The notes below the pieces were generated by a model. The model saw only the letters and a list, made by a program, of their open reading frames with translations. It searched no databases and was not told the DNA's origin. The translations under genes were made by a program, and so were the position numbers. Below are positions 1 through 17,691 of a stretch of 20,376 nt of DNA, piece by piece (the first letter of the stretch is position 1; each line of letters begins with the position of its first letter). The stretch spans positions 1-20,376 of IMG/VR virus record IMGVR_UViG_2877973648_000005; one strand, written 5' to 3'. Source of the DNA: a virus (taxonomy: Duplodnaviria > Heunggongvirae > Uroviricota > Caudoviricetes).

Positions 1-477
1 ATGAAACTCATCAGTAACGATCTGCGCGATGGCGATAAATTGCCGCATCGTCATGTCTTTAACGGCATGGGTTACGATGGCGATAATATTTCACCGCATC
101 TGGCGTGGGATGATGTTCCTGCGGGAACGAAAAGTTTTGTTGTCACCTGCTACGACCCGGATGCGCCAACCGGCTCCGGCTGGTGGCACTGGGTAGTTGT
201 TAACTTACCCGCTGATACCCGCGTATTACCGCAAGGGTTTGGCTCTGGTCTGGTAGCAATGCCAGACGGCGTTTTGCAGACGCGTACCGACTTTGGTAAA
301 ACCGGGTACGATGGCGCAGCACCGCCGAAAGGCGAAACTCATCGCTACATTTTTACCGTTCACGCGCTGGATATAGAACGTATTGATGTCGATGAAGGTG
401 CCAGCGGCGCGATGGTCGGGTTTAACGTTCATTTCCACTCTCTGGCAAGCGCCTCGATTACTGCGATGTTTAGTTAA
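1..477 (+). CDS. ybhB: YbhB, Raf-kinase-inhibitor-like (PEBP/YbhB-YbcL family) protein
   Basis: 158-aa ORF whose translation matches E. coli YbhB as I remember it; it is the known neighbour of the lambda attachment site on the bio side. Confidence 0.88.
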   Translation: MKLISNDLRDGDKLPHRHVFNGMGYDGDNISPHLAWDDVPAGTKSFVVTCYDPDAPTGSGWWHWVVVNLPADTRVLPQGFGSGLVAMPDGVLQTRTDFGKTGYDGAAPPKGETHRYIFTVHALDIERIDVDEGASGAMVGFNVHFHSLASASITAMFS

Positions 478-567: not shown

Positions 568-582
568 TTAGTATAAAAAAGC
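568..582. other. attR core (lambda att 15-bp common core, reverse complement of GCTTTTTTATACTAA) with B' arm gctcaag to its left
   Basis: ttagtataaaaaagc at 568-582 is identical to the core at 19032-19046 and in the same orientation; flanked on the left by CTTGAGCGAAACG-type attB sequence. Confidence 0.85.
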
Positions 583-899
583 TGAACGCGAAACATTAAA
601 AACCATTAATATCAATGTGTTACAATATCTTTAGTCTAAAAAATAGACTACATGATGCTACAAAACACAACATATCCAGTCACTATGAATCAACTACTTA
701 GATAGTATTAGTGACCTGAGACAGAGCATTAGCGCAAGGTGATTTTTGTCTTCTTGCGCTAATTTTTTGTTATCAAACATGTCGCACTCCAGAGAAGCAC
801 AAAGCCTTGCAATCCAGTGCAAAGATTTGTGTGCCTCAGTTTTGTCTAAGTGTTCTACTGAAAACATAGTAAAATCGGCAACAGCTGGAAATCATTCAA
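583..899. other. Prophage right-end remnant: diverged lambda-like attP P arm plus ~180 bp of b-region DNA, ending at the IS1 junction
   Basis: Reverse complement resembles the lambda P-arm sequence (CTGTTACAGGTCACTAATAC...CATAGTGACTGGATATGTTGTGTTTT) with substitutions; no ORF. Confidence 0.7.
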
Positions 900-914
900 G
901 GTAATGACTCCAAC

Positions 915-1418
915 TTATTGATAGTGTTTTATGTTCAGATAATGCCCGATGACTTTGTCATGCAGCTCCACCGATTTTGAGAACGACAGCGACTTCCGTC
1001 CCAGCCGTGCCAGGTGCTGCCTCAGATTCAGGTTATGCCGCTCAATTCGCTGCGTATATCGCTTGCTGATTACGTGCAGCTTTCCCTTCAGGCGGGATTC
1101 ATACAGCGGCCAGCCATCCGTCATCCATATCACCACGTCAAAGGGTGACAGCAGGCTCATAAGACGCCCCAGCGTCGCCATAGTGCGTTCACCGAATACG
1201 TGCGCAACAACCGTCTTCCGGAGACTGTCATACGCGTAAAACAGCCAGCGCTGGCGCGATTTAGCCCCGACGTATCCCCACTGTTCGTCCATTTCCGCGC
1301 AGACGATGACGTCACTGCCCGGCTGTATGCGCGAGGTTACCGACTGCGGCCTGAGTTTTTTAAGTGACGTAAAATCGTGTTGAGGCCAACGCCCATAATG
1401 CGGGCTGTTGCCCGGCAT
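915..1418 (-). CDS. insB: IS1 InsB frame (expressed as InsAB' by -1 frameshift)
   Basis: 167-aa ORF overlapping insA in the -1 frame, as in canonical IS1. Confidence 0.88.
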
Positions 1419-1612
1419 CCAACGCCATTCATGGCCATATCAATGATTTTCTGGTGCGTACCGGGTTGAGAAGCGGTGTAAGTGAACTGCAGTTGCCATG
1501 TTTTACGGCAGTGAGAGCAGAGATAGCGCTGATGTCCGGCGGTGCTTTTGCCGTTACGCACCACCCCGTCAGTAGCTGAACAGGAGGGACAGCTGATAGA
1601 AACAGAAGCCAC
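1337..1612 (-). CDS. insA: IS1 InsA (transposition repressor / N-terminal part of the InsAB' transposase)
   Basis: 91-aa [46 protein letters not shown]..., the canonical IS1 InsA. Confidence 0.92.
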
Positions 1613-1699
1613 TGGAGCACCTCAAAAACACCATCATACACTAAATCAGTAAGTTGGCAGCATCACCTTCAATCCGCATGAATTTAAAAAAGACAATTT

Positions 1700-1737
1700 T
1701 TAGAAATAAGCCGGATAAAAAAATAGCTTTATCCGGC
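1700..1737 (-). terminator. Rho-independent terminator downstream of corA
   Basis: Dyad GCCGGATAAA / TTTATCCGGC followed on the minus strand by a T-rich tract, immediately after the corA stop. Confidence 0.55.
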
Positions 1738-1744
1738 ACTCATA

Positions 1745-2695
1745 TTACAACCAGTTCTTCCGCTTAAAGTACAGATACGGTGCCAGGCCCGCGAGGATCA
1801 TAAAGATAATCGCGGCAGGGTAGCCGAAGCTCCACTTCAGTTCTGGCATAAACTCAAAGTTCATGCCATAGCTGGAAGCAACGAGCGTCGGCGGCAGGAA
1901 TACCACGGATACCACCGAGAAGATTTTGATGATGCGGTTCTGCTCGATGTTGATAAAACCCATTGCCGCCTGCATCAGGAAGTTCACCTTCTGGAACAGG
2001 GATTCGTTATGCGGCAGCAGGGATTCGATATCTCGCAGGATTTCACGCGCCTGCTCCAGTTGCCCACCCGGTAAACGCGCTTTACGCACCAGGAAGTTGA
2101 GCGCGCGCTGGGTATCCATCAGACACAGGCGAACTTTCCAGCCGATATCTTCCAGTTCCGCCAGAGTGGAGAGCGCCTCGTCGTACTCATCGCCCTGATG
2201 CCCTTCCATAATCACCCGGCTCAACTGCTCCAGGTCGCTATAGATATTTTCAATTTCATCTGCCAACTGTTCGATTTTGGTTTCGAACAGATCCAGCAGC
2301 AACTCGTAGGCGTTACCGTCTACCATCGACTGGCTACGGGCACGCATACGATACAGACGAAAAGCGGGCAGTTCACGCTCACGCAGAGTAAACAGACGAC
2401 CATCACGGATGGTAAATGCCACAGTGGAGTTACCGGCGTGATCTTCCGCATCTTCAAAGAAGAAGAAGGAGTGAATATGCAGGCCGTCGTCGTCTTCAAA
2501 GAAACGTGCCGATGCTTCGATGTCTTCCAGTTCCGGGCGGGTTGCCAGGCTCTGGCCAAGTTCAGATTGTAAGCGCAGTCGCTCGTCGTCGTCCGGTTCG
2601 ACAAGATCAATCCATACTGCATTTACAAGGGGTTGTGACTCTTCGACTTCCAGCCGGGTCAGTCGGTTATTTTCCAGTTGAAATGCGCTCAGCAT
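1745..2695 (-). CDS. corA: CorA magnesium/cobalt transporter (316 aa, GMN motif)
   Basis: Translation [20 protein letters not shown]...[18 protein letters not shown]...KRKNWL matches E. coli CorA. The ORF track's upstream Met adds 5 codons; the native start is taken as 2695. Confidence 0.9.
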
Positions 2696-3064
2696 GACCG
2701 GGACTCCCAATGCTTAAAATATCGGACAGTTCGGTGGGCACACAGAAACAAATTGGGTTTCAGACCATTAAACAGCCTGACTCAGCGCGACGGGAAAAAT
2801 TGAGGTCGCTGACAACCGCTAAGGCTATCAGCAAAAAGGGATAGCCTTAGGAGTTGATCCTGGATGACAGGATAGTGAGCCAGTATCTACTGGGTGTGTC
2901 CAAGGCGAATGTCCTCTTAGAGTGATCGTGCGCGCATGTTACGCCAGCAAAATTTTGCCGTCAACACGCAACAGAACACCACAGAACAATAGTTGAACTT
3001 CGCGCTTTTTGGTACTCGTCAAGGTCGCTAACAGGATAAAAAAATCCCACATCCAGGACCTATA

Positions 3065-3352
3065 ATGGCGCATCAGCTACTCATTGGTAAAGGAATGATC
3101 ACCTTGAATCTCAAACGGATTTTTCTCGCCCTCACCTTACTTCCCTTGTTTGCTGTTGCCGCTGATGATTGCGCACTCTCAGATCCGACGCTGACCGTAC
3201 AGGCGTATACCGTTAATCCTCAAACAGAGCGGGTGAAAATGTACTGGCAAAAAGCCAATGGCGAAGCGTGGGGAACGTTACATGCTCTGCTGGCGGATAT
3301 TAATAGTCAGGGTCAGGTGCAGATGGCGATGAACGGCGGCATCTATGATGAA
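3065..3352 (+). pseudogene. 5' fragment of a signal-peptide protein gene divergent from corA (possibly yigE), truncated by the IS1 junction
   Basis: ORF with a signal-peptide-like N-terminus (MITLNLKRIFLALTLLPLFAVAA) runs directly into the IS1 inverted repeat at 3353; its last 9 codons in the ORF track (GDAANLLI) are encoded by IS1. The yigE assignment is from remembered K-12 gene order only. Confidence 0.5.
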
Positions 3353-3407
3353 GGTGATGCTGCCAACTTACTGATTTAGTGTATGATGGTGTTTTTGAGG
3401 TGCTCCA

Positions 3408-3683
3408 GTGGCTTCTGTTTCTATCAGCTGTCCCTCCTGTTCAGCTACTGACGGGGTGGTGCGTAACGGCAAAAGCACCGCCGGACATCAGCGCTATCTC
3501 TGCTCTCACTGCCGTAAAACATGGCAACTGCAGTTCACTTACACCGCTTCTCAACCCGGTACGCACCAGAAAATCATTGATATGGCCATGAATGGCGTTG
3601 GATGCCGGGCAACAGCCCGCATTATGGGCGTTGGCCTCAACACGATTTTACGTCACTTAAAAAACTCAGGCCGCAGTCGGTAA
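3408..3683 (+). CDS. insA: IS1 InsA
   Basis: Identical 91-aa translation to the InsA at 1337-1612. Confidence 0.92.
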
Positions 3684-4105
3684 CCTCGCGCATACAGCCG
3701 GGCAGTGACGTCATCGTCTGCGCGGAAATGGACGAACAGTGGGGATACGTCGGGGCTAAATCGCGCCAGCGCTGGCTGTTTTACGCGTATGACAGTCTCC
3801 GGAAGACGGTTGTTGCGCACGTATTCGGTGAACGCACTATGGCGACGCTGGGGCGTCTTATGAGCCTGCTGTCACCCTTTGACGTGGTGATATGGATGAC
3901 GGATGGCTGGCCGCTGTATGAATCCCGCCTGAAGGGAAAGCTGCACGTAATCAGCAAGCGATATACGCAGCGAATTGAGCGGCATAACCTGAATCTGAGG
4001 CAGCACCTGGCACGGCTGGGACGGAAGTCGCTGTCGTTCTCAAAATCGGTGGAGCTGCATGACAAAGTCATCGGGCATTATCTGAACATAAAACACTATC
4101 AATAA
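3602..4105 (+). CDS. insB: IS1 InsB frame
   Basis: Identical 167-aa translation to the InsB at 915-1418. Confidence 0.88.
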
Positions 4106-4120
4106 GTTGGAGTCATTACC

Positions 4121-4325
4121 GTTTTTTGGCCCCTTCTATGGTGGCTATAATGTAATCAAACTGGATGATGAGTATAAGTATGCTCTTGTCAGTGGTCCGA
4201 ACAGAGAATACCTATGGATTCTGGCAAGGACCCCAACTATTCCAGATAAAGTAAAAGCAGACTATGTGCGAACCGCTCAAAAGTTGGGATTCAATGTCAA
4301 TGAATTATTATGGGTTAAACAATAA
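4121..4325 (+). pseudogene. 3' fragment of a lipocalin (Blc-like outer-membrane lipoprotein) gene, truncated at the IS1 junction
   Basis: FFGPFYGGYNVIKLDDEYKYALVSGPNREYLWILARTPTIPDKVK...LLWVKQ resembles the C-terminal third of E. coli Blc (FFGPFYGGYNVIALDREYRHALVCGPDRDYLWILSRTP...) but is clearly diverged; there is no start codon outside IS1. Confidence 0.7.
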
Positions 4326-4480: not shown

Positions 4481-4873
4481 TTATTTCGAACAATCAGCAT
4501 CCATCTCCAATCGGAGAACCAACACCATCAGCATACCCTCCACTACGCCCTCAGCTTTCTGAAGCATCCTGCCAACCCAACAATCAGATCGCCCATGCTT
4601 ACGTGCAAGCGCCATAAAAGTCATGCCGCCGACATAATAGTCCACCAATAAATCATGCAAATCGCTGTTGTTCTTTTTCAGACGGGCCATGCACCCGCAA
4701 ATGATCATCGCGTCATCGTCACAACATTGTGGGCGAGATTTTACTTTTGAAGGAATTAATCCCTTAAAACCGGCGGCAATGGACGACCAGGTCACATCTT
4801 CATGATTATTAGCCGCCCACGCTCCCCAACGCTCAAGAACCATCTGAATATCACGCATCAACTTACTCCACAA
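4481..4873 (-). CDS. Late-gene antiterminator Q, short QuuD-like type
   Basis: Position (last gene of the nin region, upstream of a terminated short leader) and size/sequence resembling the DLP12 QuuD class of Q proteins; the native start may be the internal Met (MRDIQ...). Confidence 0.7.
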
Positions 4874-4943
4874 AACTCAGACCAGAACGCCAATTACAAG
4901 CAAAAATCAACAAAACAGTATTAGTTGATTGTTATCTCTGACT

Positions 4944-5084
4944 TCATACTCCTGCTCCTGTCAGTGTTTTGGCGTAATTCTTCAGTATTCGGTAATCGGT
5001 CAAAACAGAACCGGGGAAACGATATAAGCGCAGACGCCCCCAGCGGTGGCGAAGAAGTTCTGCCATATTAAACTCAAACATCAT
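4944..5084 (-). CDS. Small YlcG-like protein (46 aa)
   Basis: Sub-threshold [49 protein letters not shown] whose start overlaps the rusA stop, as in the DLP12 rusA-ylcG-quuD arrangement. Confidence 0.45.
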
Positions 5085-5443
5085 TCATTCCCCATTTCGG
5101 TGATGGTCAGTTCCAGCCTCCCACCTTTGGTAACAGGCATCTTCACAACGCGGTAATCAACGACCTGAGCATCATCCAGCCAGAAACCTGCTTTAGTGAG
5201 TGCGTCAAAAGCGGCTTTTTGCAGATTATCCAGGTCACGGCGACGGCGATCCGGCATGTGGCACTCAATGCGGATTTTCACAGGCATAGCCAGGCCGATA
5301 TCTAGCATTGCGTTTTTAATGATTCGGGCGACGTTATCGCGGTATGCCTGCCCCTCTGCGCTGATGTGCGTGCGTCCGCGATTATGGCGGTAATAGCGAT
5401 TATTGCTCGGAGGCCAGGGTAATGTGATGCTGTAGGTATTCAC
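5081..5443 (-). CDS. rusA: RusA Holliday-junction resolvase
   Basis: 120-aa translation matches E. coli/DLP12 RusA ([26 protein letters not shown]...). Confidence 0.92.
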
Positions 5444-5730
5444 GCCTTAATAACCCCCTCTTTCAGCCAGATAACCTGTGTTCTCGCCATACCTTCCAGC
5501 GCGCATTCTTTTGCATATGCAGCATCGACAAAATGTGTGCGGCGGTCGATTTCGTCGTGGCAGGCAGAACATGCAATGGTGGCAATCAGGTCTGGCGGTT
5601 TGATACCGGTACCGCACAATCCAGCCAGCCGGATATGTGCCAGTACAGACGTCTCAGAATTGCCATTACATACGCCAGGGATTCTTACCTGGCATTCCCG
5701 ACCACGCGCTGCTTTTCTCAAATCAGCCAT
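5440..5730 (-). CDS. ybcO: YbcO-like prophage nuclease (DUF1364)
   Basis: 96-aa translation from [24 protein letters not shown]... matches DLP12 YbcO; the ORF-track start at 5769 is an upstream extension. Confidence 0.85.
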
Positions 5731-5893
5731 GATTCCTCCTTGCTGCCAGTCGCAACCATTTTTTATCAACCAGGCTAGCGGTATATCCGAGCAGTGTTGG
5801 TATTTCGGATGGCTTCAGCTCAGGCTTACGCTTACGACGATTTGATACTCTGTAGATGTGTCCGTTCATGACACGAATAAGCGGTGTAGCCAT
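5723..5893 (-). CDS. ninE: NinE-like protein (56 aa)
   Basis: Sub-threshold [50 protein letters not shown]...; its start overlaps the ybcN stop (TAATG) and its stop overlaps the ybcO start. Confidence 0.7.
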   Translation of the reverse strand: MATPLIRVMNGHIYRVSNRRKRKPELKPSEIPTLLGYTASLVDKKWLRLAARRNHG

Positions 5894-6348
5894 TACGCCT
5901 CCTGCTTGTCGCGGAGCAGCTGGAACTCGCAGCTCTGCGGAATAGTCAGGTGGCAGCCAATATTCATCGCCCAGGCTTCAACCTTACACAGGAAGACATA
6001 CATCTCTCCGGTATCAAGATTGGAGGTATGACGTAATGACTGAATGGTGGTGATTTCACCGGTTACGACATCAACCAGTTCTTTGGTTTCATAACCGAGA
6101 TAAGTGTGTTTGAGAGCATCTTTTACCCAAGCTGGAGTGGCGAACGTTTTACCCCTGCTGATGAGGTATTCACTGATTTCGCTGTACCACATGTGGCTGA
6201 GTGCATTCTGGGAAAGACTGCGTCTCTCGCGCCACGGTTTAAGCACCATGCGAAAGCATTTGCCGTCCTCCAGATAAGGCTGGATCTGCCGACCGATAGC
6301 GGTGAAGTTACCGCGATGCAATTTGATACCATCTTGTGGGAGGTTCAC
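5893..6348 (-). CDS. ybcN: NinB/Orf-family recombination protein (YbcN-like, 151 aa)
   Basis: [17 protein letters not shown] motif comparable to lambda NinB RSLDQNRKLW...; size and position match DLP12 ybcN. Confidence 0.78.
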
Positions 6349-6554
6349 GCTTCACCTCCGCAGAGATCAAACGCTGGATGCAAAATATCGCAGGTGCATT
6401 TCTGCATCTGTGAATGGAGAAGAGAGGTTGGATTGTATGTGCGCATAAACGTCCCCGTTTAGCGCAGAAGTCACCGAAGTTGTTCAGGCTCCGATTACTT
6501 AATTATGGCAAGTTGATTATCGCAAATCAAAGGTTTTAATTGTGCTTTATTCTT

Positions 6555-6755
6555 TCAAGCGTTTCCTTCATACCAAAGCCTATAAAGTTTTTCTTCTTCG
6601 TTTGGGTTAATAGGCTCACCATGTTTTAATTTTTCAGTGTACAAAATTGTTGAACAAATCGCGGAAGTTAATCCAGTGATCGCCATCTGCCGCAGATCGG
6701 ATTTTTGTGTCCCCCTCAACAGACGATCTCCCATCCATGTAATAATTGTATCCAT
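6555..6755 (-). CDS. Hypothetical 66-aa protein
   Basis: ORF in AT-rich DNA with a plausible RBS (aagaagg); no recognisable family. Confidence 0.35.
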   Translation of the reverse strand: MDTIITWMGDRLLRGTQKSDLRQMAITGLTSAICSTILYTEKLKHGEPINPNEEEKLYRLWYEGNA

Positions 6756-7347
6756 GCTTCAGCCCTTCTTAGTAAATAGTGTGTAGGGCGACTGAAGGAC
6801 CGAGTTTATGCTTTTTCGCATTGCTTTCAGTTAGTAGACCGGTATAGCACCGGAAACAATCCTACGGCAAATTGGTTGTCTGACCTCTCGGTTTTTCGTG
6901 CATTAACCGATACCCACTACAGTCTCGGCGAAAGCTGCACACCCCCAAGGTGTACTGGTAGCACTCGGCACAGCCTAGCGCGCCACTTTCTTCTCACTAT
7001 CCAGTCTAATTTTATCCCCTAGTCAGACACTCAGATGTAGTGCTCAGCAGCGGCATGCGGGGGAATACAAAAACTCGGACAAAATTGGGCCCTCCTTTTT
7101 GAATCACTCGCGGGGATGTAGTTATTAATACATGGGAAAAGATCTGTTTTCAAATCCAACATTATATGGTTTCAATACCACGGGGTGGCTATGTGTTTCT
7201 CATTATTATTTACAATCTACTGTAATCGCTCCGAACGCAAATGCGTCAATACTCGAATCAACTGATCATCCTGCCACGACTGAAATCTCAAATAGGCCGT
7301 TTCTCAAGTAAGAGATTTTGAATGCATTATTGGCTACTGAAATAAAA

Positions 7348-7378
7348 AACCCAGCGCAAACTGGGTTCATATGAAATT
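7348..7378 (-). terminator. Rho-independent terminator after the secreted-protein gene
   Basis: CCCAG...CTGGG stem followed by TTTTTT on the minus strand, just downstream of the stop at 7385. Confidence 0.5.
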
Positions 7379-7384
7379 TTTTTG

Positions 7385-7879
7385 TCATTTCCAATTGCAA
7401 GACTGTGAAATTTTTTCCACAACCTTATCAATCTCAGACAAGTCAAACTCAACTACTTGCATAGTTGATCCATAAGGTTCAAACCCAAAAATAGCTTTTT
7501 TATGCTTAGCCAAGGTCTTTATAAATTGTATTGGTTGTGGAGCAAATGCAGAATCACCGCCTTCCCCACCTCCCCAAACACTCTTGACCGGCTTTCCGCC
7601 ATCTAACCGCACTGTAATTCTTGGGTTGTCCGAACCCATATAATCATTGAATGATAAATAGGCATCTGTTTTGTTATCACTACAACGCAACACCAGTGAA
7701 GTTGCACGATCAGTACCTGCTTTGTTATATGAATCTGGTGATAAATTAAGAGCCACAAAGTCAGTCTGGTCAGTCATTTTATTTATCTCAGACTTTGTTA
7801 TCCACGGCCCTAACTTCTCTACACCAGCATTTGCTGTAAACGAGGCACTTATAACAAAGGCTAAAATAAATTTTCTCAT
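7385..7879 (-). CDS. Hypothetical secreted protein (164 aa) with Sec signal peptide; moron in the ren/ninA position
   Basis: N-terminus MRKFILAFVISASFTANA is a signal peptide; strong RBS aaggaga; AT-rich codon usage distinct from flanking lambda genes; own terminator. Confidence 0.65.
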   Translation of the reverse strand: MRKFILAFVISASFTANAGVEKLGPWITKSEINKMTDQTDFVALNLSPDSYNKAGTDRATSLVLRCSDNKTDAYLSFNDYMGSDNPRITVRLDGGKPVKSVWGGGEGGDSAFAPQPIQFIKTLAKHKKAIFGFEPYGSTMQVVEFDLSEIDKVVEKISQSCNWK

Positions 7880-8025
7880 AACCCTATCTCCTTGGATTCA
7901 AAGAACTAAATATTATCAAGTCTCTTGCCACTAGAAAACCCACTTTATTTCCAAACTCTGATGGCATTCCTGAAAATCCGCTTCATACTCACTTGCCCCG
8001 CCCTATCATCCTGAGTAGCTAACCG

Positions 8026-8199
8026 TTAAACAAACGTTCGCCAGACCTTACCATCAATGACCAGGATTCCTGCCCGCGTCATTTTTGCCGCAGCCTTATT
8101 TATGCTGGTTAATGTCACACCTGTTGTCGCAGCAACGTCCGGCGCACAGAAGCTCTTGTGCGTCTCCAGATAATGAATAATTGCCTCTTTGCCCGTCAT
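8026..8199 (-). pseudogene. ren: Truncated ren (57 codons; first ~55 residues Ren-like)
   Basis: MTGKEAIIHYLETHKSFCAPDVAATTGVTLTSINKAAAKMTRAGILVIDGKVWRT matches the lambda Ren N-terminus, then diverges to a stop; the ATG overlaps the P stop (ATGA) as in lambda. Confidence 0.65.
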
Positions 8200-8897
8200 A
8201 CAGTTGCTCCTTTCAGTCCGAACTTCGCTTTGATTTCTGCGATCTTCGCCAGAGCCTGAGCCCGGTTAAGTGGTCTACCGCCCATGACAGGAAGTTGTTT
8301 TACTGGTTCAGGTATAGCCTCACCACGGTTAATTCGTGCGGTCATACAGGACAGTTCATCGGCAGCCTTGCGCCGTAATTCCGCGTCAGTCAACGCATTG
8401 GCCCGCATGTTCTGATACAGGTTGGTAACCAGCCAGTAGTGCGCGTTTGATTTCCACGGATAAGACTCTGCATCCGGATACAGCCCGCGCTTCCGGCAAT
8501 ACTCGTAAACCATATCAACCAGCTCGCTGGCGTTTGGCAGCCCGGCGGTAACGGATGCTTCTTCCCGGCACCAGGCGACAAACTGCCCGGGTGATGGCAG
8601 GAATGGTCGATTCTGCCGACGGGCTACGCGCATTCCAGCGTTAACCTGTTCCATTGTGGTGATCCCGTTTTCCCGAAAAGCCAGCACCCACTGGCGGCGG
8701 ATTTCGTTCAGTTCATTCTGGTCACGGTTAGCCAGGCTCGCCGGGAAAGTTGCCAGTAACTGGCTGAACACACCGTTGATGATCTGCGCTACCTGCTGTA
8801 CCTGCGGCTTTTCGTCGTACTGTTCCGGCATGTTGTTGGCGATCCGACGCATCTGCTCACGGTCAAAGTTAACCATCTGTGCGGCGATGTTTTTCAT
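8196..8897 (-). CDS. P: Replication protein P (DnaB helicase loader)
   Basis: 233-aa translation nearly identical to lambda P (MKNIAAQMVNFDREQMRRIANNMPEQYDEKPQVQQ...). Confidence 0.95.
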   Translation of the reverse strand: MKNIAAQMVNFDREQMRRIANNMPEQYDEKPQVQQVAQIINGVFSQLLATFPASLANRDQNELNEIRRQWVLAFRENGITTMEQVNAGMRVARRQNRPFLPSPGQFVAWCREEASVTAGLPNASELVDMVYEYCRKRGLYPDAESYPWKSNAHYWLVTNLYQNMRANALTDAELRRKAADELSCMTARINRGEAIPEPVKQLPVMGGRPLNRAQALAKIAEIKAKFGLKGATV

Positions 8898-9913
8898 AAA
8901 TCCACCCCGTAAATCCAGTCAGTGTTTGTCAGGTCGAGTTTTGGTTTGCTGGCTATCATGCCTGCCTGTTGCTTGTTACGGTTGATTTCGAGTTGGGTCC
9001 ACTTGTCGCGGAGTTTGGCCGGACTTAGCACGTTACCGGACCAGAAGTTGTCCTGGCATGCCCAGCGGAAAAGCACGCACATGTCGCGGTGGTTACGTCC
9101 GTCACGTTCACGCATCAGGCGGATATCGTTAGCCCACCCTGCAAAATTCGGTTTTCTGGCTGATGGTGCGATGGTCTTCACCATGTCAAACATCCACTCT
9201 GCGGCGGTCAGGTCTTCTGCTGTCCCCCACTTGCTGCCGCTCTGAATTGCAGCATCTGGTTTCACCACAGGAAGATCGTTTTCTGGTTGGTCAGAGGATT
9301 CGCCAGAATTCTCGGACGAAAAAGGTTTTATATTGTCTTTTGTTAGTTTGTCTTTTGTGTTTACCTGATTCGGGTAAACGCCTTTACCTGATTTGGGTAA
9401 ACTTTTCTTACCTGATTCAGGTAAATTTACCTCTTTCAGGTAAACTTTATTTTTCTTACCTGATTCGGGTAATGTTGACCATTCACTGACCACATTATTA
9501 ATACCGATATTCCGCCCGCTCTGAATCAAAATCCCACGCTTTACCAGAACACTTTTTGCAGCAGAACACTTGTGCGGTAATATCCCGGTCAATCCGGACA
9601 GTTGCTCGTTGCTCACCCAATCCAGTTTTTTATTAAAGCCATATGTTTTGCGCATGACAGCCAGGAAGACCAGAAGCTGGTGCTGTGTTAATCCGGCCAG
9701 CATCACAGCTTCCAGCAACTCATTTGCAATGCGCGTATAACCATCATCGAGATCTGCCACGCGCGGCTCCTTTTGTGCCGCATCCGGCACTGGAAAATTG
9801 AATATCTCAGCAGTGTTTGCCATAATTCCTCCCGCAATGAGTGTGTTACGATTTGCACCTGAAAGTCGGTTCTGTTCCAGCAGACCGGCTTTCGCCATTT
9901 CTGAACCTGTCAT
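8894..9913 (-). CDS. O: Replication initiator O-like protein (iteron-binding), contains ori
   Basis: Located immediately upstream of and overlapping P; contains internal iteron array plus AT-rich tract, the lambda O/ori architecture. The N-terminal domain differs from lambda O. Confidence 0.85.
   Translation of the reverse strand: MTGSEMAKAGLLEQNRLSGANRNTLIAGGIMANTAEIFNFPVPDAAQKEPRVADLDDGYTRIANELLEAVMLAGLTQHQLLVFLAVMRKTYGFNKKLDWVSNEQLSGLTGILPHKCSAAKSVLVKRGILIQSGRNIGINNVVSEWSTLPESGKKNKVYLKEVNLPESGKKSLPKSGKGVYPNQVNTKDKLTKDNIKPFSSENSGESSDQPENDLPVVKPDAAIQSGSKWGTAEDLTAAEWMFDMVKTIAPSARKPNFAGWANDIRLMRERDGRNHRDMCVLFRWACQDNFWSGNVLSPAKLRDKWTQLEINRNKQQAGMIASKPKLDLTNTDWIYGVDL
9361..9474. repeat. Replication origin iterons: five ~19-bp direct repeats TTACCTGATTCGGGTAAAC, each an internal palindrome
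   Basis: Repeats at 9361-9379, 9384-9402, 9408-9426, 9427-9445 and 9456-9474 with 0-10 bp spacing, inside the O reading frame. Confidence 0.8.
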
Positions 9914-10449
9914 ATCGCCCCCAGCATGGTAGTAACCATCGCCATCAATGGACCAGCCAGATCTGGGTCCACACGAAACATCGATACAATACCTTCACTA
10001 ATTTCCTTCAGTTTCTGGTGGCGTGGTGCGTTAAGAATGACAGCCTGTTTTGCCTCACTGAGTTCCTTTTCCATTTCAGCCAACCTGGCCATGAAGCTAT
10101 CCTGCTCAACCAGGTAACCGCGATATTCCAGCGGTAGTACCGCCAGAATTGCCGGGGTCAGTTCACGCACGTTATTTCGGTATTTTTCAGAATCGAATTT
10201 GTTATCGAGGAAGCGGAACAGCTTCTGGCGTGCACGGCTGACATCATCAGGGAAATCGATGGTGCCGCCGCCCTGCTCCCGATACTCATTCACAATGAGT
10301 GTGGCAACGACATCCTGATTATCTACAGCCGACCAGGCGCGGACGGCATCACGGATTTTTTCGTGGCCTGGCACCTGTTTTGTTTGAGAACGATTTATCA
10401 CCGCAGTCGGGCTAAATCCGCTAGTCTGTTGGTATGGAAGTGGTTGCAT
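9910..10449 (-). CDS. YdaT-like protein in the cII position (179 aa)
   Basis: Sits between cro and O with the stop overlapping the O start; the Cro-like + larger-protein pair resembles Rac ydaS-ydaT. Assignment is by synteny and general resemblance, not a firm match. Confidence 0.5.
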   Translation of the reverse strand: MQPLPYQQTSGFSPTAVINRSQTKQVPGHEKIRDAVRAWSAVDNQDVVATLIVNEYREQGGGTIDFPDDVSRARQKLFRFLDNKFDSEKYRNNVRELTPAILAVLPLEYRGYLVEQDSFMARLAEMEKELSEAKQAVILNAPRHQKLKEISEGIVSMFRVDPDLAGPLMAMVTTMLGAI

Positions 10450-10518
10450 AATTGACTCCTTTAGTTTGAATTGACTGTTAAGTTGATTGCTTATTGTTAA
10501 AGAGCGTGAAATGGAAAT

Positions 10519-10749
10519 TTAAGCTGCGTTCTTTTCGGTGTGTGGAAACAACTTCGGAAGATCCGGGCGAATCTGGTATGCCTTCACTACTCCACCAGTA
10601 GCCGTAACAATGCTGCCGACATGTTCAGGGGATACCTTTGCTTTGTTGTGAAGCCACTTATAGACGGCCTGCTGTGAAACTTCGCAAGCAGCGCCCAGTT
10701 TCTTTTGTGAACCAACGATATTGATCGCTGTTTTGATAGCTGGGTTCAT
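10519..10749 (-). CDS. cro: Cro-like repressor (YdaS/Cro HTH family, 76 aa)
   Basis: Small HTH protein divergent from cI across an operator-rich 104-bp spacer; GGAGG RBS 5 nt upstream. Confidence 0.7.
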   Translation of the reverse strand: MNPAIKTAINIVGSQKKLGAACEVSQQAVYKWLHNKAKVSPEHVGSIVTATGGVVKAYQIRPDLPKLFPHTEKNAA

Positions 10750-10853
10750 AACAACCTCCGTGGTTAATTTGAATCAAGATTAAAACTATGGTTGTTTTTA
10801 GTCAACAACCATTTTCGTTTGATGGAATAAAACCTTGGTTGTACATTTGGACT
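10750..10853. promoter_or_regulatory. OR/pR/pRM divergent control region
   Basis: Intergenic between divergent cro and cI; contains the 17-bp palindrome AAAACTATGGTTGTTTT (10782-10798), related to a site in the OL region. Confidence 0.6.
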
Positions 10854-11543
10854 ATGAAAACAACACTCTCAGAAAGACTTAAAGAAGCCAGATTAGCGCG
10901 AGGCCTTACACAAAAGGCGCTTGGGGATTTGGTCGGGGTTAGCCAGGCTGCTATTCAGAAAATCGAAACAGGGAAAGCTAATCAAACAACTAAAATCGTG
11001 GAGATCGCGAACGCTTTGGGTGTGCGCGCAGAATGGTTATCTTCTGGCGTTGGAAATATGTCAGACAGTACAGTGCAACCAATACAATCAACTGTCAGCC
11101 ATTCCAAATACTTCAAGATTGACGTTCTTGATATAGAAGTCAGTGCTGGGCCGGGAGTCATCAACCGTGAGTTTGTAGAAGTTCTACGCTCGGTTGAGTA
11201 CTCGTTTGACGATGCTCGTCACATGTTCGATGGTAGGAAGGCGGAAAATATCCGCATCATTAACGTGCGTGGTGACAGCATGTCAGGAACGATCGAACCA
11301 GGTGATCTGCTGTTCGTTGATATCACAGTTAAATCTTTCGACGGTGATGGTATCTATGCGTTTCTGTACGACGACACAGCCCATGTAAAGCGCCTGCAAA
11401 TGATGAAGGATAAGCTGCTGGTCATCTCTGATAACAAAAGCTACTCACCGTGGGACCCGATCGAGAAAGACGAGATGAACCGGGTGTTCATCTTCGGTAA
11501 GGTTATTGGGAGCATGCCGCAGACATATAGGAAGCATGGGTAG
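10854..11543 (+). CDS. cI: CI prophage repressor (N-terminal HTH, C-terminal S24 LexA-like autopeptidase)
   Basis: HTH LTQKALGDLVGVSQAAIQKIETGK; the C-terminal domain has the GDSM serine motif and a downstream Lys (HVKRLQ). Start placed at MKTTLSERL (apparently leaderless, as for lambda pRM), because the ORF-track start at 10788 would lie within the operator region. Confidence 0.85.
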   Translation: MKTTLSERLKEARLARGLTQKALGDLVGVSQAAIQKIETGKANQTTKIVEIANALGVRAEWLSSGVGNMSDSTVQPIQSTVSHSKYFKIDVLDIEVSAGPGVINREFVEVLRSVEYSFDDARHMFDGRKAENIRIINVRGDSMSGTIEPGDLLFVDITVKSFDGDGIYAFLYDDTAHVKRLQMMKDKLLVISDNKSYSPWDPIEKDEMNRVFIFGKVIGSMPQTYRKHG

Positions 11544-11664
11544 TACCAATTAAAAATTATCAACTGGGCATTGTGCTCATTCAGTAAAGAACTAATTCCT
11601 ATCTTTGCTCTAGGTAGTAATATTAAGCCACCGCAATAATATCTTTACCTAACGGCGTAAGAAT

Positions 11665-11690
11665 CCCGGTCACCGTGCCGGGTTTTCTTT
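11665..11690 (+). terminator. Rho-independent terminator after cI
   Basis: CCCGGT / GCCGGG stem followed by TTTTCTTTT. Confidence 0.55.
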
Positions 11691-11799
11691 TGCCCTCCCC
11701 TCATCACACACACCGTTAAAAAAACCACCATAACCTCGCTTCAGTTATCGCTATGCGATTCAAGTCACAAAATAAATCCATCCTAAATACAACCAGTTA

Positions 11800-11870
11800 T
11801 ATCTAAAACAACCAATAAAACAACTTTTGTTGTTGACGATAAAACAACTATAGTTTTAAATAAGTTCATC
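11800..11870. promoter_or_regulatory. OL/pL-like region
   Basis: AT-rich segment with TTGACG (-35-like) and the palindromes CAACTTTTGTTG and AAAACAACTATAGTTTT (11841-11857), the latter differing by one base from the reverse complement of the OR site. Confidence 0.5.
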
Positions 11871-12054
11871 GCAACAACACAACGATACGGCAACTACCTG
11901 ATTCACCGTTGCGATGACCGCTTAGATCCGCAGTTTGAATTTCAGCAGGCTTCGGGGAGTGCGAGGGGTGAAACGGACGCGTGAACGTCGGTGTGACCAG
12001 CTGAAATTAACTCAACATTTCATACCTCAGTCGCTTCAACGAGGCGGCTTAGTT

Positions 12055-12345
12055 ATGACAACCGGCGGCCATCCACCGCCTGAATATGCGCAGAAGTCTC
12101 TATATGTTCAGCAGCCCAGCTTACGGGCAGGAGTTTTTATGGTTCATCAACATTACGGAACACAGACCGTTAATCGCGGCGCGGTCATGCCAGGAATGCT
12201 GGTCAAACACAAAGATGGTACCTGGACTGCATCAGCTAATTTACGCGGACGGCTTTATCTGCATCGCGGCATCGAGCGCACTTATACCAGTGATTTGCTC
12301 GTGGAAGTTTTTCTCGACGGACGCGGTAACGGCCTGAATCACTAA
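12055..12345 (+). CDS. Hypothetical early-left protein (N/kil/cIII position)
   Basis: ORF immediately upstream of gam with a GAGG RBS; the same frame extends upstream through an Arg-rich stretch (KRTRERR) to GTG/TTG starts. Confidence 0.45.
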   Translation: MTTGGHPPPEYAQKSLYVQQPSLRAGVFMVHQHYGTQTVNRGAVMPGMLVKHKDGTWTASANLRGRLYLHRGIERTYTSDLLVEVFLDGRGNGLNH

Positions 12346-12421
12346 CCCCCCTTTCCTGTTTTCCTAATCAGCCTGGCATTTCGCGGGCGATATTTTCACA
12401 GCCATTTTCAGGAGTTCAGCC

Positions 12422-12718
12422 ATGAACGCTTATTACATTCAGGATCGTCTTGAGGCTCAGAGCTGGGCGCGTCACTACCAGCAGCTCGCCCGTGAAGAGA
12501 AAGAGGCAGAACTGGCAGACGACATGGAAAAAAGCCTGCCCCAGCACCTGTTTGAATCGCTATGCATCGATCATTTGCAACGCCACGGGGCCAGCAAAAA
12601 AGCCATTACCCGTGCGTTTGATGACGATGTTGAGTTTCAGGAGCGCATGGCAGAACACATCCGGTACATGGTTGAAACCATTGCTCACCACCAGGTTGAT
12701 ATTGATTCAGAGGTATAA
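12422..12718 (+). CDS. gam: Gam, RecBCD inhibitor
   Basis: Translation [37 protein letters not shown]... matches lambda Gam (short form). Confidence 0.95.
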
Positions 12719-12723
12719 AACGG

Positions 12724-13509
12724 ATGAGTACAGCACTCGCAACGCTGGCTGGGAAGCTGGCTGAACGTGTCGGCATGGATTCTGTCGACCCACAGGAACT
12801 GATCACCACTCTTCGCCAGACGGCATTTAAAGGTGATGCCAGCGATGCGCAGTTCATCGCATTGTTGATCGTCGCCAACCAGTACGGCCTTAATCCGTGG
12901 ACGAAAGAAATTTACGCCTTCCCTGACAAGCAGAACGGCATCGTTCCGGTGGTGGGCGTTGATGGCTGGTCCCGTATCATCAATGAAAACCAGCAGTTTG
13001 ATGGCATGGACTTTGAGCAGGACAATGAATCATGTACATGCCGGATTTACCGCAAGGACCGTAATCATCCGATCTGCGTTACCGAGTGGATGGATGAATG
13101 CCGCCGCGAACCATTCAAAACCCGCGAAGGCAGAGAAATCACGGGGCCGTGGCAGTCGCATCCCAAACGGATGTTACGGCATAAAGCCATGATTCAGTGT
13201 GCCCGTCTCGCCTTCGGATTTGCTGGTATCTATGACAAGGATGAAGCCGAGCGCATTGTCGAAAATACCGCATACACTGCAGAACGTCAGCCGGAACGCG
13301 ACATCACTCCGGTTAACGATGAAACCATGCAGGAGATTAACACTCTGCTGATCGCCCTGGATAAAACATGGGATGACGACTTATTGCCGCTCTGTTCCCA
13401 GATATTTCGCCGCGACATTCGCGCATCGTCAGAACTGACACAGGCCGAAGCAGTGAAAGCTCTTGGATTCCTGAAACAGAAAGCCACTGAGCAGAAGGTG
13501 GCAGCATGA
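12724..13509 (+). CDS. bet: Bet (Red-beta) single-strand annealing protein
   Basis: 261-aa translation essentially identical to lambda Bet. Confidence 0.97.
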
Positions 13510-14186
13510 CACCGGACATTATCCTGCAGCGTACCGGGATCGACGTGAGAGCTGTCGAACAGGGGGATGATGCATGGCACAAATTACGGCTCGGCGTCAT
13601 CACCGCTTCAGAAGTTCACAACGTGATAGCAAAGCCCCGCTCAGGAAAGAAGTGGCCTGACATGAAAATGTCCTACTTCCACACCCTGCTGGCTGAGGTT
13701 TGCACCGGTGTGGCTCCGGAAGTTAATGCTAAGGCGCTGGCCTGGGGAAAACAGTACGAGAACGACGCCAGAACCCTGTTTGAATTCACTTCCGGCGTGA
13801 ATATTACTGAATCCCCGATCATCTATCGCGACGAAAATATGCGCACCGCCTGCTCTCCCGATGGTTTATGCAGTGACGGCAACGGCCTTGAACTGAAATG
13901 CCCGTTTACCTCCCGGGATTTCATGAAATTCCGGCTCGGTGGTTTCGAGGCAATAAAATCGGCTTACATGGCCCAGGTGCAGTACAGCATGTGGGTGACG
14001 CGAAAAGATGCCTGGTACTTTGCCAACTATGACCCGCGCATGAAGCGTGAAGGCCTGCATTATGTCGTGATTGAGCGGAATGAAAAGTACATGGCGAGTT
14101 TTGACGAGATGGTGCCGGAGTTCATCGAAAAAATGGACGAGGCACTGGCTGAAATTGGTTTTGTATTTGGGGAGCAATGGCGATGA
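13506..14186 (+). CDS. exo: Exo (Red-alpha) 5'-3' exonuclease
   Basis: 226-aa translation essentially identical to lambda Exo; start overlaps the bet stop. Confidence 0.97.
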
Positions 14187-14365
14187 CGCATCCTCACGAT
14201 AATATCCGGGTAGGCGCGATCACTTTCGTCTACTCCGTTACAAAGCGAGGCTGGGTATTTCCCGGCCTTTCTGTTATCCAAAATCCACTGAAAGCCCAGC
14301 GGCTGGCTGAGGAGATAAATAATAAACGAGGGGCTGTATGCACAAAGCATCTCCCGTTGAGTTAA
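14177..14365 (+). CDS. lambda orf60a-like protein
   Basis: [31 protein letters not shown]... matches lambda orf60a. Confidence 0.75.
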
Positions 14366-14529
14366 GAACGAGTATCGAGATGGCACATAGCCTCGCTCAA
14401 ATTGGAGTCAGGTTTGTGCCAATACCAGTAGAAACAGACGAAGAATTTCACACGTTAGCCGCATCCCTTTCACAAAAGCTGGAAATGATGGTGGCGAAAG
14501 CAGAAGCAGATGAGAGAGACCAGGTATGA
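14338..14529 (+). CDS. lambda orf63-like protein
   Basis: [37 protein letters not shown]... matches lambda orf63. Confidence 0.75.
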   Translation: MHKASPVELRTSIEMAHSLAQIGVRFVPIPVETDEEFHTLAASLSQKLEMMVAKAEADERDQV

Positions 14530-14605
14530 CAACCACTGAATGCATTTTTCTGGCAGCGGGCTTCATATTCTGTGTGCTTATGCTTGCCGACATGGGACTT
14601 GTTCA

Positions 14606-14821
14606 ATGACACCTCAGCAGGAAAACGCCCTTCGCAGCATTGCCCGTCAGGCTAATTCTGAAATCAAAAAAGCCAGACAGCAGTTTCCGGATAAAAACGT
14701 CGATGACATTTGCCGTAGCGTACTGAAGAAGCACCGCGAAACGGTAACGCTGATGGGATTCACACCGACTCATTTAAGCCTGGCAATCGGCATGTTAAAC
14801 GGCGTCTTTAAGGAACGATGA
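14606..14821 (+). CDS. lambda orf61-like protein
   Basis: MTPQQENALRSIARQANSEIKKARQQFPDKNVDDICRS... matches lambda orf61; the ORF-track start at 14540 is an upstream extension. Confidence 0.7.
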   Translation: MTPQQENALRSIARQANSEIKKARQQFPDKNVDDICRSVLKKHRETVTLMGFTPTHLSLAIGMLNGVFKER

Positions 14822-14919
14822 ACATGAAAAGCAAAATCATCAGGGAGCTACAGGCTCCTTTTTTATTATTCGCATTCACCCTCAAGCGTATTAACCAACA
14901 ATTCAGGGATTAATGGAAG

Positions 14920-15141
14920 ATGGCAGACATCATTGATTCAGCATCAGAAATTGAAGAATTACAGCGCAACACAGCAATAAAAATGCGCCGCCTGAACCAC
15001 CAGGCTATATCTGCCACTCATTGTTGTGAGTGTGGCGATCCGATAGATGAACGAAGACGCCTGGTCGTTCAGGGTTGTCGGACTTGTGCAAGTTGCCAGG
15101 AAGATCTGGAGCTTATCAGTAAACAGAGAGGTTCGAAGTGA
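14920..15141 (+). CDS. TraR/DksA-family C4 zinc-finger protein (lambda orf73-like)
   Basis: CCECGDPIDERRRLVVQGCRTCASCQ four-Cys motif. Confidence 0.7.
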   Translation: MADIIDSASEIEELQRNTAIKMRRLNHQAISATHCCECGDPIDERRRLVVQGCRTCASCQEDLELISKQRGSK

Positions 15142-15449
15142 GCGAAATTAACTCTCAGGCACTGCGTGAAGCGGCAGAGCAGGCAATGCATGACGACTGG
15201 GGATTTGACGCAGACCTTTTCCATGAATTGGTAACACCATCGATTGTGCTGGAACTGCTGGAACTGCTGGATGAGCGGGAAAGAAACCAGCAATACATCA
15301 AACGCCGCGACCAGGAGAACGAGGAAATTGCGCTAACGGTAGGAAAGCTGCGCGTTGAGCTGGAAGCAGCAAAATCAAAACTCAACGAGCAGCGTGAATA
15401 TTACGAAGGTGTTATCTCGGATGGAAGTAAGCGTATTGCTGAACTGTAG
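15138..15449 (+). pseudogene. ea22: Truncated ea22 (N-terminal 103 codons only)
   Basis: MSEINSQALREAAEQAMHDDWGFDADLFHELVTPSIVLELL... matches the start of lambda Ea22 (182 aa in lambda); it ends where the AT-rich island begins. Confidence 0.65.
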
Positions 15450-15699
15450 GCCTAGGTTGAGTGTACAAGATTTGCATACGTAAGAGCAAAAGACAAGGGA
15501 GAATTGATCAGAGTTATTACCTGCCAACCAACGGGATATTACGCTTACGTACCATGTAACTAGGAATCCTTGAAGTGGCAGCCTAACTGTGGATACACTG
15601 AAATGGCGATTTGGTAACATGTTTCGCACAAGGCTGTTACTACGCTTAGAGATAATCAGTCATGATTAAATGCTTTGTAAAAAGTAAAAGGAAATTACA

Positions 15700-16314
15700 A
15701 TGAAAAAATCAACACTAATTTTAGGGCTTACGTTAATTGTCTCATCTCAAATACCATCGGCAATGGCAAAAAATGAATCAAAACTTTGGGTTGTTGTTGA
15801 TCGAACGGAAAGACATACCTGCCCTTCAAGTAAATGTGGAGTGGCTGGGAAACTATTTTTCAGGGAAGGCGTAGATTTTCTAGAAAAAAAAGGTGAATGG
15901 GTTCGTATAACTGAGCCATATTCAGCCTCATGTGTGGGAGGGGAAAGCGAATATATTAAAGAAGGTAATAAATCCTGCACAAGAAAAAACGGAATCGTTA
16001 ATGGCAAGTTTTCAGAATGGGTTAAACTTAGTGATCTTAGCAGTGAAAGGCCATCAGATCCTGCTGAAAATGCGAGCAGAAATGATACCTTAATCAAAGG
16101 ATCTGATGACTACCGTATATACAAAAAAGAGTTTTCTTCGGCAGCTAGGAAGTTAATAAGTGAAGGTGTCTGCACGGAGAGCGATTTTAAGGAAGTTGGA
16201 GGGTGGATGGCATCAAGCAATAAGGGTGAAAACATCTATTTCACATATTGCGGAGGAATGACGTTGTCGAACAGAATATATCTAGACGTTAAAAGTGGAA
16301 AGACTTTTAGATAA
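15700..16314 (+). CDS. Hypothetical secreted Cys-rich protein (204 aa), cargo gene
   Basis: Signal peptide MKKSTLILGLTLIVSSQIPSAMA; AAGGA RBS; six Cys in the mature part; very AT-rich relative to the prophage backbone. Confidence 0.65.
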   Translation: MKKSTLILGLTLIVSSQIPSAMAKNESKLWVVVDRTERHTCPSSKCGVAGKLFFREGVDFLEKKGEWVRITEPYSASCVGGESEYIKEGNKSCTRKNGIVNGKFSEWVKLSDLSSERPSDPAENASRNDTLIKGSDDYRIYKKEFSSAARKLISEGVCTESDFKEVGGWMASSNKGENIYFTYCGGMTLSNRIYLDVKSGKTFR

Positions 16315-16607
16315 TATGATATTACCAATGACAGCATTAATTTAATGCCTCCATAGAATTATCTCTAGGAAGTAAGTATAAGAAAAGTCCGCACAATGAG
16401 CTGCTGCGGGCTTTGTGTTATTCGCCATATTTTATGAAGCAAATACGACACTATAGATAATTAAGCGTTACTGGTTGTCGATTCCTCACTCATTCCTGCT
16501 GATGGCTGTCTTCTTGTATGTGTCATTGAAGGGTAATATCGCGTAAAAAGATACCGGAAGTATCCGCGCCGCCATGATTGTCTTTCTCCTGATGCAGGAA
16601 AAGCAGA

Positions 16608-16946
16608 ATGACTAAATCAGCAGCAGAGCGCAAAGCCGATCAGAGAGCCAAGCAAGCATCATCCGGTATGCGTAAGCTGGAGCTTGTACTTGATGCTCAG
16701 GAAATTGAAATGCTGGAGCGTAACTGAGCCACGCGCCGCTTCAGGCGTGCGCCTTACGAGTTTGGTGAGTACATAGCGTTACTGAGCCGCCAGGATGATG
16801 CACGTGTGCGCTGGCGTATAAAATCGATTAGCAGAAAACGTTGCCGTAAGTGCGGCGAGAAAGTTCCTGTTAATTCATGCCCGTGTAATGGTGACTCACA
16901 ATACTGGGTGACCAAAGGCTGGCACGAAACAAAATTAATGATATAA
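16608..16946 (+). pseudogene. Zinc-ribbon small protein gene interrupted by an in-frame TGA (39 codons, TGA at 16725-16727, then 72 more sense codons)
   Basis: AGGAAAAG RBS before the ATG at 16608; the same frame continues after the TGA to a TAA at 16944-16946 and encodes CRKCGEKVPVNSCPCNG. Neither half alone reaches 60 aa. Confidence 0.4.
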
Positions 16947-16974
16947 ATCTCTGTGACATGTCACGGAGGCGGCA

Positions 16975-17403: not shown

Positions 17404-17448
17404 TTCTTAGCATAAAGCAACTACTGCCTTTGGTGAAAATTATATCTG

Positions 17449-17471
17449 AACTCGCTACGGCGAGTTTTTTT
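17449..17471 (+). terminator. Rho-independent terminator after the 142-aa gene
   Basis: CTCGC-TACG-GCGAG hairpin followed by TTTTTTT. Confidence 0.6.
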
Positions 17472-17665: not shown

Positions 17666-17691
17666 TTGCGTGTAATTGCGGAGACTTTGCG

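Follow-up and report, generated by a model that had tools for sequence, protein, structure and literature searches.

An IS1-bounded corA segment in a lambdoid prophage: a probable composite transposon copy with a one-sided deletion

Insertion sequence IS1 forms composite transposons that move by transposase action at their outer ends and duplicate 8-9 bp of the target; textbook examples are Tn9, in which two IS1 copies enclose cat, and Tn1681, an IS1-flanked heat-stable enterotoxin determinant, and the ends of Tn6062 are likewise IS1. IS1 also gives rise to adjacent deletions, by intramolecular transposition of an IS1 end into a nearby target, and these were reportedly first described by Reif and Saedler in 1975 in the gal region of Escherichia coli K-12. 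Tn6062 is a composite transposon of IncHI1 plasmids of Salmonella Typhi, which carries betU and a second transporter and confers osmotolerance (PMC3139670). Here we analysed a 20,376-nucleotide stretch of viral DNA (IMG/VR record IMGVR_UViG_2877973648_000005, positions 1 to 20,376; hereafter the window), in which positions 900-4120 hold corA, a housekeeping magnesium-channel gene, between two inverted copies of IS1. Genome comparison makes it very probable that this block is one copy of a 3.2-kb IS1 composite, which would have entered a lambdoid prophage by normal insertion and would afterwards have been affected by a one-sided deletion of 30.6 kb.

Among described elements Tn6062 is the closest documented analogue, as both are composites with transporter cargo found on IncHI1 plasmids; they differ in that Tn6062 holds betU and a second transporter with demonstrated osmotolerance, whereas the present unit carries corA and is known here from sequence alone. 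The inverted orientation of its IS1 copies is shared with Tn1681 and sets the unit apart from Tn9, in which they are direct repeats, and it differs from both in cargo, holding a housekeeping gene with its own promoter and leader. The missing 30.6 kb resembles the gal-region deletions, which start exactly at an IS1 terminus, keep the IS1, leave the opposite flank untouched and lose the target duplication, but in the window the event is read from genome comparison and is inseparable by sequence from recombination between two IS1 copies. The surrounding prophage is similar to DLP12 and Rac, lambdoid prophages crippled in their late genes with the involvement of IS elements and with int, xis and early genes kept; it differs from them in its position at the lambda attachment site (att-lambda) and in having a near-identical complete sibling, in genome YZB902, which allowed the deletion to be mapped to the base. 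The IS1 composite, the IS1 adjacent deletion and the defective lambdoid prophage are all kinds already known, and no new mechanism is involved. Any novelty would be confined to the present member, in which a mobile corA retains its native regulatory region and is unexpectedly widespread. A literature search for a named IS1-corA transposon returned no name, Tn number or description, and only passing mentions of corA or yigE on IncHI1 plasmids: a transcriptome study of plasmid R27 lists insB1, insA and yigE (R0094, R0095 and R0097) among the R27 genes without comment (PMC7366339), and a preprint on IncHI plasmids mentions whether corA is present or absent in those of the IncHI1 group (10.1101/334409).

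The outstanding hit of the repeat finder was an inverted repeat with arms of 772 nt (900-1671 and 3349-4120) that are 100% complementary. Direct reading of the ends placed IS1 proper at 900-1667 and 3353-4120, giving two identical copies of 768 bp apiece, exact reverse complements of each other, with 1,685 bp between them. This agrees with an earlier interpretation made from the letters of the window by themselves (the sequence-only reading), which had described two complete inverted 768-bp IS1 elements around 1.68 kb. The four extra bases of the repeat arms, TTCA and TGAA at the two inner junctions, are a coincidence, because the ancestral long form of the unit, described below, has GAAAATAAA at that junction. 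Both copies show the imperfect terminal inverted repeats GGTGATGCTGCCAACTTACTGAT and GGTAATGACTCCAACTTATTGAT of the IS1 family; their right ends (IRR, beginning GGTAATGAC) point outward and their left ends (IRL, beginning GGTGATGC) inward. Each contains open reading frames (ORFs) for insA (91 aa) and insB (167 aa), and the identical sequence is labelled in RefSeq as an IS1A family transposase with a programmed frameshift; the joining of the insA and insB' frames by a programmed -1 frameshift is a trait of the IS1 family. No 8-9 bp duplication was found at either single IS1 of the window and the flanks are mismatched, as the sequence-only reading had stated, and the four flanking 9-mers that it quoted are exact. 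When these four were compared by eye for direct or inverted pairing, including the pattern of an IS1-to-IS1 inversion, in which for example the outer left flank would pair with the reverse-complemented inner right one, none matched. That the single IS1 copies lack a duplication is expected, since each forms one arm of a composite that has itself lost one side of its outer duplication.

Evidence that the block is a composite came from its other copies. In a survey set of 5,426 complete E. coli genomes, the complete IS1-to-IS1 block was present in 143, with varied flanking genes, and a query spanning the junction between yigE' and IS1 matched 172 (~3%). The passenger segment was also found in 66 plasmid records from Salmonella, Escherichia, Enterobacter, Citrobacter, Klebsiella and Kosakonia, and none of the deposited phage genomes searched carries the IS1-corA-IS1 unit. 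Junctions were read in 15 fetched mobile copies. The right inner junction, GGCATCTATGATGAA directly followed by IS1, was the same in all copies read that have a right IS1, bar a 1-bp length difference in one of them (L021). The left inner junction exists in a long form (3,242-bp unit), with 21 bp more of native DNA and IS1 followed by GAAAATAAAATAGAGAGAGTT TTCAATCCG, and in the short form of the window (3,221-bp unit). The whole unit is flanked by perfect 8-9 bp duplications at five independent sites (Table 1). Two copies of one IS enclosing a cargo, the recurrence of the same unit with identical inner junctions at unrelated sites, the whole-unit duplications and a verified empty site together identify a composite transposon. 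Comparison of the copies shows that the unit moved as a block, for which IS1 transposase acting on the two outer ends would be the mechanism. Minor differences of 1 base in length were seen at inner junctions of L009, L013 and L021 (CACC-TCAATCC vs CACC-TTCAATCC; GGGATGC vs GGTGATGC), which may be homopolymer sequencing errors or real microvariation.

For the copy in the window, the insertion could be followed in YZB902, where the same prophage lies complete at att-lambda and a lipocalin gene is interrupted by the unit, with one copy of GTTTTTTG on either side of it. The two sequences differ at 4 of 11,501 bases over window positions 900-12400 and at 4 of 899 over positions 1-899. When the flanks were rejoined with a single GTTTTTTG, the product aligned with intact lipocalin genes over 292 bp at 100% identity, and the rebuilt empty site matched 1,087 of the 5,426 genomes at a cover of at least 80%. 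Genome comparison shows this copy to have inserted in the lipocalin gene just downstream of Q, with duplication of GTTTTTTG. In the window only the right-hand GTTTTTTG remains, and the right junction, IS1 followed by GTTTTTTGGCCCC, is unchanged relative to YZB902. Some 20% of the complete E. coli genomes have the insertion site in the lipocalin gene uninterrupted.

The stretch missing from the window amounts to 30,587 bp, counted on YZB902; one of its ends coincides exactly with the outer terminus of the left IS1, and the other lies 317 bp from the attR core. At this far breakpoint, ATCATTCAA of the window continues as TACTCGCAC in both enterotoxigenic E. coli (ETEC) H10407 and YZB902, with a diguanylate cyclase gene, tail fibre genes and lom beyond. 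Present in YZB902 and lost from the window are the 5' part of the lipocalin gene, ybgA, araC (with the insertion IS1B), the essD-rrrD-rz lysis cassette, nohD and the terminase, portal, head, tail, J, lom, tail fibre and diguanylate cyclase genes. All that remains from Q to attR is the 3' fragment of the lipocalin gene, the IS1-corA-IS1 block and, from the right end of the prophage, 317 bp. The loss of the lysis and morphogenesis modules, which had been anticipated without a comparison genome, is thus confirmed and came about through deletion. The deleted configuration is present in three complete genomes, 1218KP, AREA_C483 and TC24.

Relative to YZB902 and H10407, the endpoint of the loss lies at the IS terminus, the IS is kept and the opposite flank is unchanged, as in an adjacent deletion, which would retain IS1 while removing one copy of the target duplication. 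The sequence-only reading had argued for IS1-mediated recombination or deletion rather than simple insertion. An IS1-associated deletion does explain the missing duplication, but the block had first been inserted normally, as seen in the two GTTTTTTG copies of YZB902; judged by these genomes, the deletion is a second, later event that affected one side only. A puzzling IS1-corA-IS1 block without duplications would in this way be explained by an insertion and a subsequent one-sided 30.6-kb deletion, with the steps documented by sibling genomes.

The origin of the cargo was examined by comparison with native corA loci. In the passenger segment the start codon of corA is the ATG at 2695 and not the TTG of a longer listed ORF (1745-2710), and the 316-aa product is full length, contains the GMN motif (as YGMNF) and is near-identical to E. 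coli CorA. An intact corA, its terminator and the 5' end of a divergent neighbouring gene had been recognized from the outset; the neighbour is yigE, of which 96 codons remain. As the promoter-like site at 2936-2964 is retained, the mobile corA keeps its native upstream region. The segment shows 1 mismatch in 1,685 bp to the native corA locus of strain 81, with an identical CorA protein, and 11 mismatches to the native locus of 1218KP. Against K-12, 2 of 1,608 nt differ and the match begins only at base 78 of the segment, an island found in strain 81 being absent from K-12. This YPO3983/DUF943 island follows corA in strain 81, and it is the 3' end of its DUF943 gene that contains the left IS1 boundary. 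Judged by these matches, the mobile segment is derived from the island-bearing type of native corA locus. The unit would have arisen in an E. coli chromosome in which one IS1 had entered the 3' end of DUF943, downstream of corA, and another had entered yigE, so that corA was bracketed. The two-gene island of the YPO3983 family and DUF943 lies between yigF and corA in many E. coli, K-12 being without it, and is bounded by a duplicated 137-147 bp corA 3' end (L005 2372-4036, strain 81; L016 8438-10092, 1218KP).

The number of corA copies was established in 1218KP, in which 1 base of the 20,376 in the window is different. Its native locus, found by synteny, is intact and consists of yigF, a corA 3' fragment, YPO3983, DUF943, corA, ysgD, full-length yigE and uvrD; the native and mobile corA genes differ at 8 nt and 2 aa (L42V, A294G). 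Because the native locus is intact, corA has been duplicated rather than relocated. The sequence-only reading had held corA to be a translocated core gene and not a prophage gene, had suggested that a second corA copy might have been created, and had proposed a finished genome as the place to count corA and to inspect the native uvrD-yigE-corA locus. In 1218KP the locus is indeed intact and corA occurs twice, once native and once mobile, so that the translocated gene is an extra copy and the native locus is separate from it. BLAST also reported a third corA place in that genome, which corresponds to the corA 3' fragment of 137-147 bp next to the island. A suspicion of ~1,900 extra corA copies was likewise rejected, since many of these are the same 137-147 bp fragment beside the YPO3983/DUF943 island at the native locus. 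The defective prophage carries this second corA, which is intact, has kept its native upstream region and is predicted to be expressed.

An artefact of assembly would account for the block quite differently, as reads from unrelated loci collapsed across the identical 768-bp IS1 repeats. Identical IS1 copies are a classic source of mis-joins and the window comes without read data of its own, and the sequence-only reading had named such an error as the finding that would overturn it. The same junctions are nevertheless present in three separate complete assemblies from different hosts, in which the order ybhB-attR-IS1-corA-IS1-lipocalin' is found at 99.4-100% identity; sibling genomes hold the undeleted precursor with its duplication, and the composite recurs elsewhere with perfect duplications. 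Mis-assembly is very improbable in the light of these genomes, and a still smaller probability was given to the suggestion that the window marks a chromosomal rearrangement junction, in which case an inversion or translocation mediated by IS1 would have brought native corA next to the prophage and corA would still be single-copy. With that suggestion the lack of a duplication at either IS1 of the window and the unpaired flanks would be consistent, but the native locus of 1218KP is intact with a different corA allele, the order of ybhB and ybhC around the prophage is normal with both att cores present, and the flanks fail, by eye, the simple-inversion test. On the strength of these comparisons, mis-assembly and chromosomal rearrangement are both effectively excluded.

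The route of the 30.6-kb loss is less firmly settled, with an IS1 adjacent deletion being the probable one. RecA-dependent recombination between the left IS1 and a same-orientation IS1 once located 317 bp from the attR core (899/900) would keep the same insertion history and would leave one IS1 with the left flank of the far copy. This prophage family gathers extra IS1 copies and recombines through them (IS1B in araC of YZB902; the third IS1 and the inversion of ET490), and there are ~20 IS1-matching places in the host genome (23 in 1218KP), both of which lend recombination some weight. The precursor it calls for, with an IS1 at the breakpoint and the junction IS1(IRL end)-ATCATTCAATACTCGCAC on its right, gave 0 records at a cover of at least 80% among the matches listed for the 5,426 genomes. 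The left IS1 also shows no sign of being a hybrid, because neither the left IS1 of YZB902 nor the right copy of the window differs from it. As no precursor was found, we consider recombination possible but rather unlikely and retain the adjacent deletion as the favoured route.

Several points weigh against the account of composite insertion and adjacent deletion given here. Adjacent deletion and IS1 x IS1 recombination give an identical product sequence, and the absence of the precursor among the matches listed in the 5,426 genomes is negative evidence only. The donor state, with IS1 at the corresponding position within native yigE, was found in none of the genomes searched, and the donor arrangement has for that reason been given conditionally. 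No duplication was present in 5 of the 11 two-IS1 contexts read besides the window (L007, L009, L010, L012 and L014); the flanks of L013 are also mismatched, its junctions carrying 1-bp length differences and its flanks having been read once. IS1 x IS1 recombination, and not transposition, may have brought some copies to their sites or altered them there. Lastly, movement of the block is read from the comparison of genomes.

The corA segment is also carried by plasmids R27 and pHCM1. Reading R27 (180 kb; L003 3212-5700) base by base showed the left IS1 and the long left boundary to be present and the right IS1 to be absent; the segment stops 8 bp early, with GGCATCT directly joined to the target repeat AAATTTAA. 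At the same backbone site, IncHI1 plasmid pSD134209-1 (L022) has the complete two-IS1 unit within a 9-bp CAAATTTAA duplication, from which it follows that the R27 copy has lost its right IS1 together with 8 bp of yigE'. Mobilisation of the R27 copy by a single IS1, using a pseudo-end in yigE (GATGCCGCC, similar to the IS1 end GATGCTGCC), was considered and is ruled out by the full unit of pSD134209-1. On three further plasmids, L017, L018 and L019 (IncR, IncF/HI1B and IncHI2, respectively; ~4950-6685), the composite adjoins a DUF2254 gene and/or a BCCT choline/betaine transporter annotated as betT. By analogy with the betU cargo of Tn6062, which this recalls, IS1-bounded transporter modules may cluster. 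A differently reduced copy is found in WP8-S17-ESBL-05 (L020 2277-4952), where the left IS1 has been lost and the right one carries a frameshift; a gene with the annotation chromate transporter directly adjoins the long-form left boundary. Similar copies lie at similar coordinates in many genomes, near 2.2-2.4 Mb, and by its structure this type looks like a fixed, immobilised remnant common to many strains.

corA was intact in 15 of 15 sampled mobile copies, with 0-3 nt changes, and these copies are too similar for their intactness to say anything about selection. We suggest tentatively, by analogy and at a low probability, that the mobile corA is not neutral, in that extra CorA dosage or this particular allele could be selectable through magnesium acquisition under limitation or altered cobalt and nickel handling. 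If so, such a benefit would explain how a single capture spread to ~3% of complete E. coli genomes and came to be present on IncHI1, IncHI2, IncR and IncF plasmids in Salmonella, Enterobacter, Citrobacter and Klebsiella, with betU in Tn6062 as a parallel; mobile corA is in this sense a candidate for a dosage-dependent fitness effect. A housekeeping magnesium-channel gene captured by IS1 with its native control region circulates on E. coli chromosomes and on conjugative plasmids of several enterobacterial genera, and annotators who meet an additional or plasmid-borne corA should not take it for contamination or mis-assembly.

Table 1. Features of the window, and whole-unit duplications around copies of the IS1-corA-IS1 unit
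Feature	Position or locus	Strand	Remarks
ybhB	1..477	+	chromosomal gene beside attR of the lambda attachment site (not ybcL); from the annotation of the near-identical 1218KP stretch
attR core TTAGTATAAAAAAGC	568..582	+	exact 15-mer, twice in the window, none expected by chance
Last 317 bp of prophage right end	583..899		ends at the deletion breakpoint, after ATCATTCAA
IS1 left copy	900..1667	-	IRR GGTAATGAC outward at 900, IRL inward at 1667; insA 1337-1612, insB 915-1418
Passenger segment, 1,685 bp	1668..3352		copy of the E. coli chromosomal corA locus type with a DUF943 gene downstream of corA
corA terminator-like hairpin	1710..1737	-	
corA	1745..2695	-	intact, 316 aa, no internal stop, YGMNF motif
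ysgD	2847..2903	-	18-codon leader-region ORF upstream of corA
Promoter-like site	2936..2964	-	
yigE'	3065..3352	+	first 96 of 254 codons, interrupted by the right IS1
IS1 right copy	3353..4120	+	IRL inward at 3353, IRR outward at 4120
GTTTTTTG	4121..4128	+	surviving copy of the 8-bp target duplication; both copies in YZB902, empty site confirmed
Lipocalin gene 3' fragment	4122..4325	+	67 codons, original target
Early half retained	4481..19031		Q, ylcG, rusA, ybcO, ninE, ybcN, P, O (iterons), cro-like, cI-like, gam, bet, exo, xis, int
attL core, then ybhC	19032..19046	+	
Duplication GTTTTTTG	L002		prophage lipocalin gene, YZB902
Duplication TTGAGCGTC	L011		E. coli plasmid
Duplication CAATTATCT	L021		chromosome, between lrhA and alaA
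Duplication GCCGACGGC	L019		IncHI2 pATCC43845, Salmonella Senftenberg
Duplication CAAATTTAA, 9 bp	L022		IncHI1 pSD134209-1

The 15-bp att core forms a direct repeat at both ends of the prophage, which lies between ybhB and ybhC and has int and xis at one end, and the window is on these grounds a lambdoid prophage at the lambda attachment site. We take the core TTAGTATAAAAAAGC to be the reverse complement of the lambda att core, GCTTTTTTATACTAA, and the adjoining 317 bp resemble, by eye, the lambda attP P arm. A complete lambda-site prophage would have been made defective by the deletion; what is left has int, xis and both att cores and is predicted to be unable to lyse the cell or form particles.

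Further IS1-associated changes were seen in the same prophage family. ET490 (L007 2354-9330) has the same prophage with the same lipocalin insertion and a third IS1 upstream of essD; the stretch from this third IS1 to the right IS1 of the composite is inverted, and the lipocalin halves lie 3.1 kb apart on opposite strands. In YZB902, IS1B lies beside a truncated araC without a duplication. From these rearrangements the family is clearly prone to IS1-driven change. A resemblance between the flank of IS1B and the left flank of the window, hinted at by BLAST extension, was rejected as a chance match.

The family carries an accessory trio downstream of Q and ahead of the lysis genes, consisting of the lipocalin gene, a ybgA-like DUF523/DUF1722 gene and an AraC-type regulator (window 4326-4480; L002 5509-8002). 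Within the replication-protein gene at 8894-9913 (-), positions 9356-9472 hold four copies of a ~22-bp repeat with the core TTACCTGATTCGGGTAA, which by sequence look like lambda O-type ori iterons. A 164-aa ORF of the nin region at 7385-7879 (-) bears the RefSeq label 'type VI secretion system-associated protein TagO', which is unusual there. According to the 1218KP annotation, decayed genes lie in 7900-8200 and 15100-17300, with a frameshift in ren, a truncated ead/Ea22-like gene and internal stops in three small ORFs; going by this annotation, the prophage was decaying independently of the big deletion.

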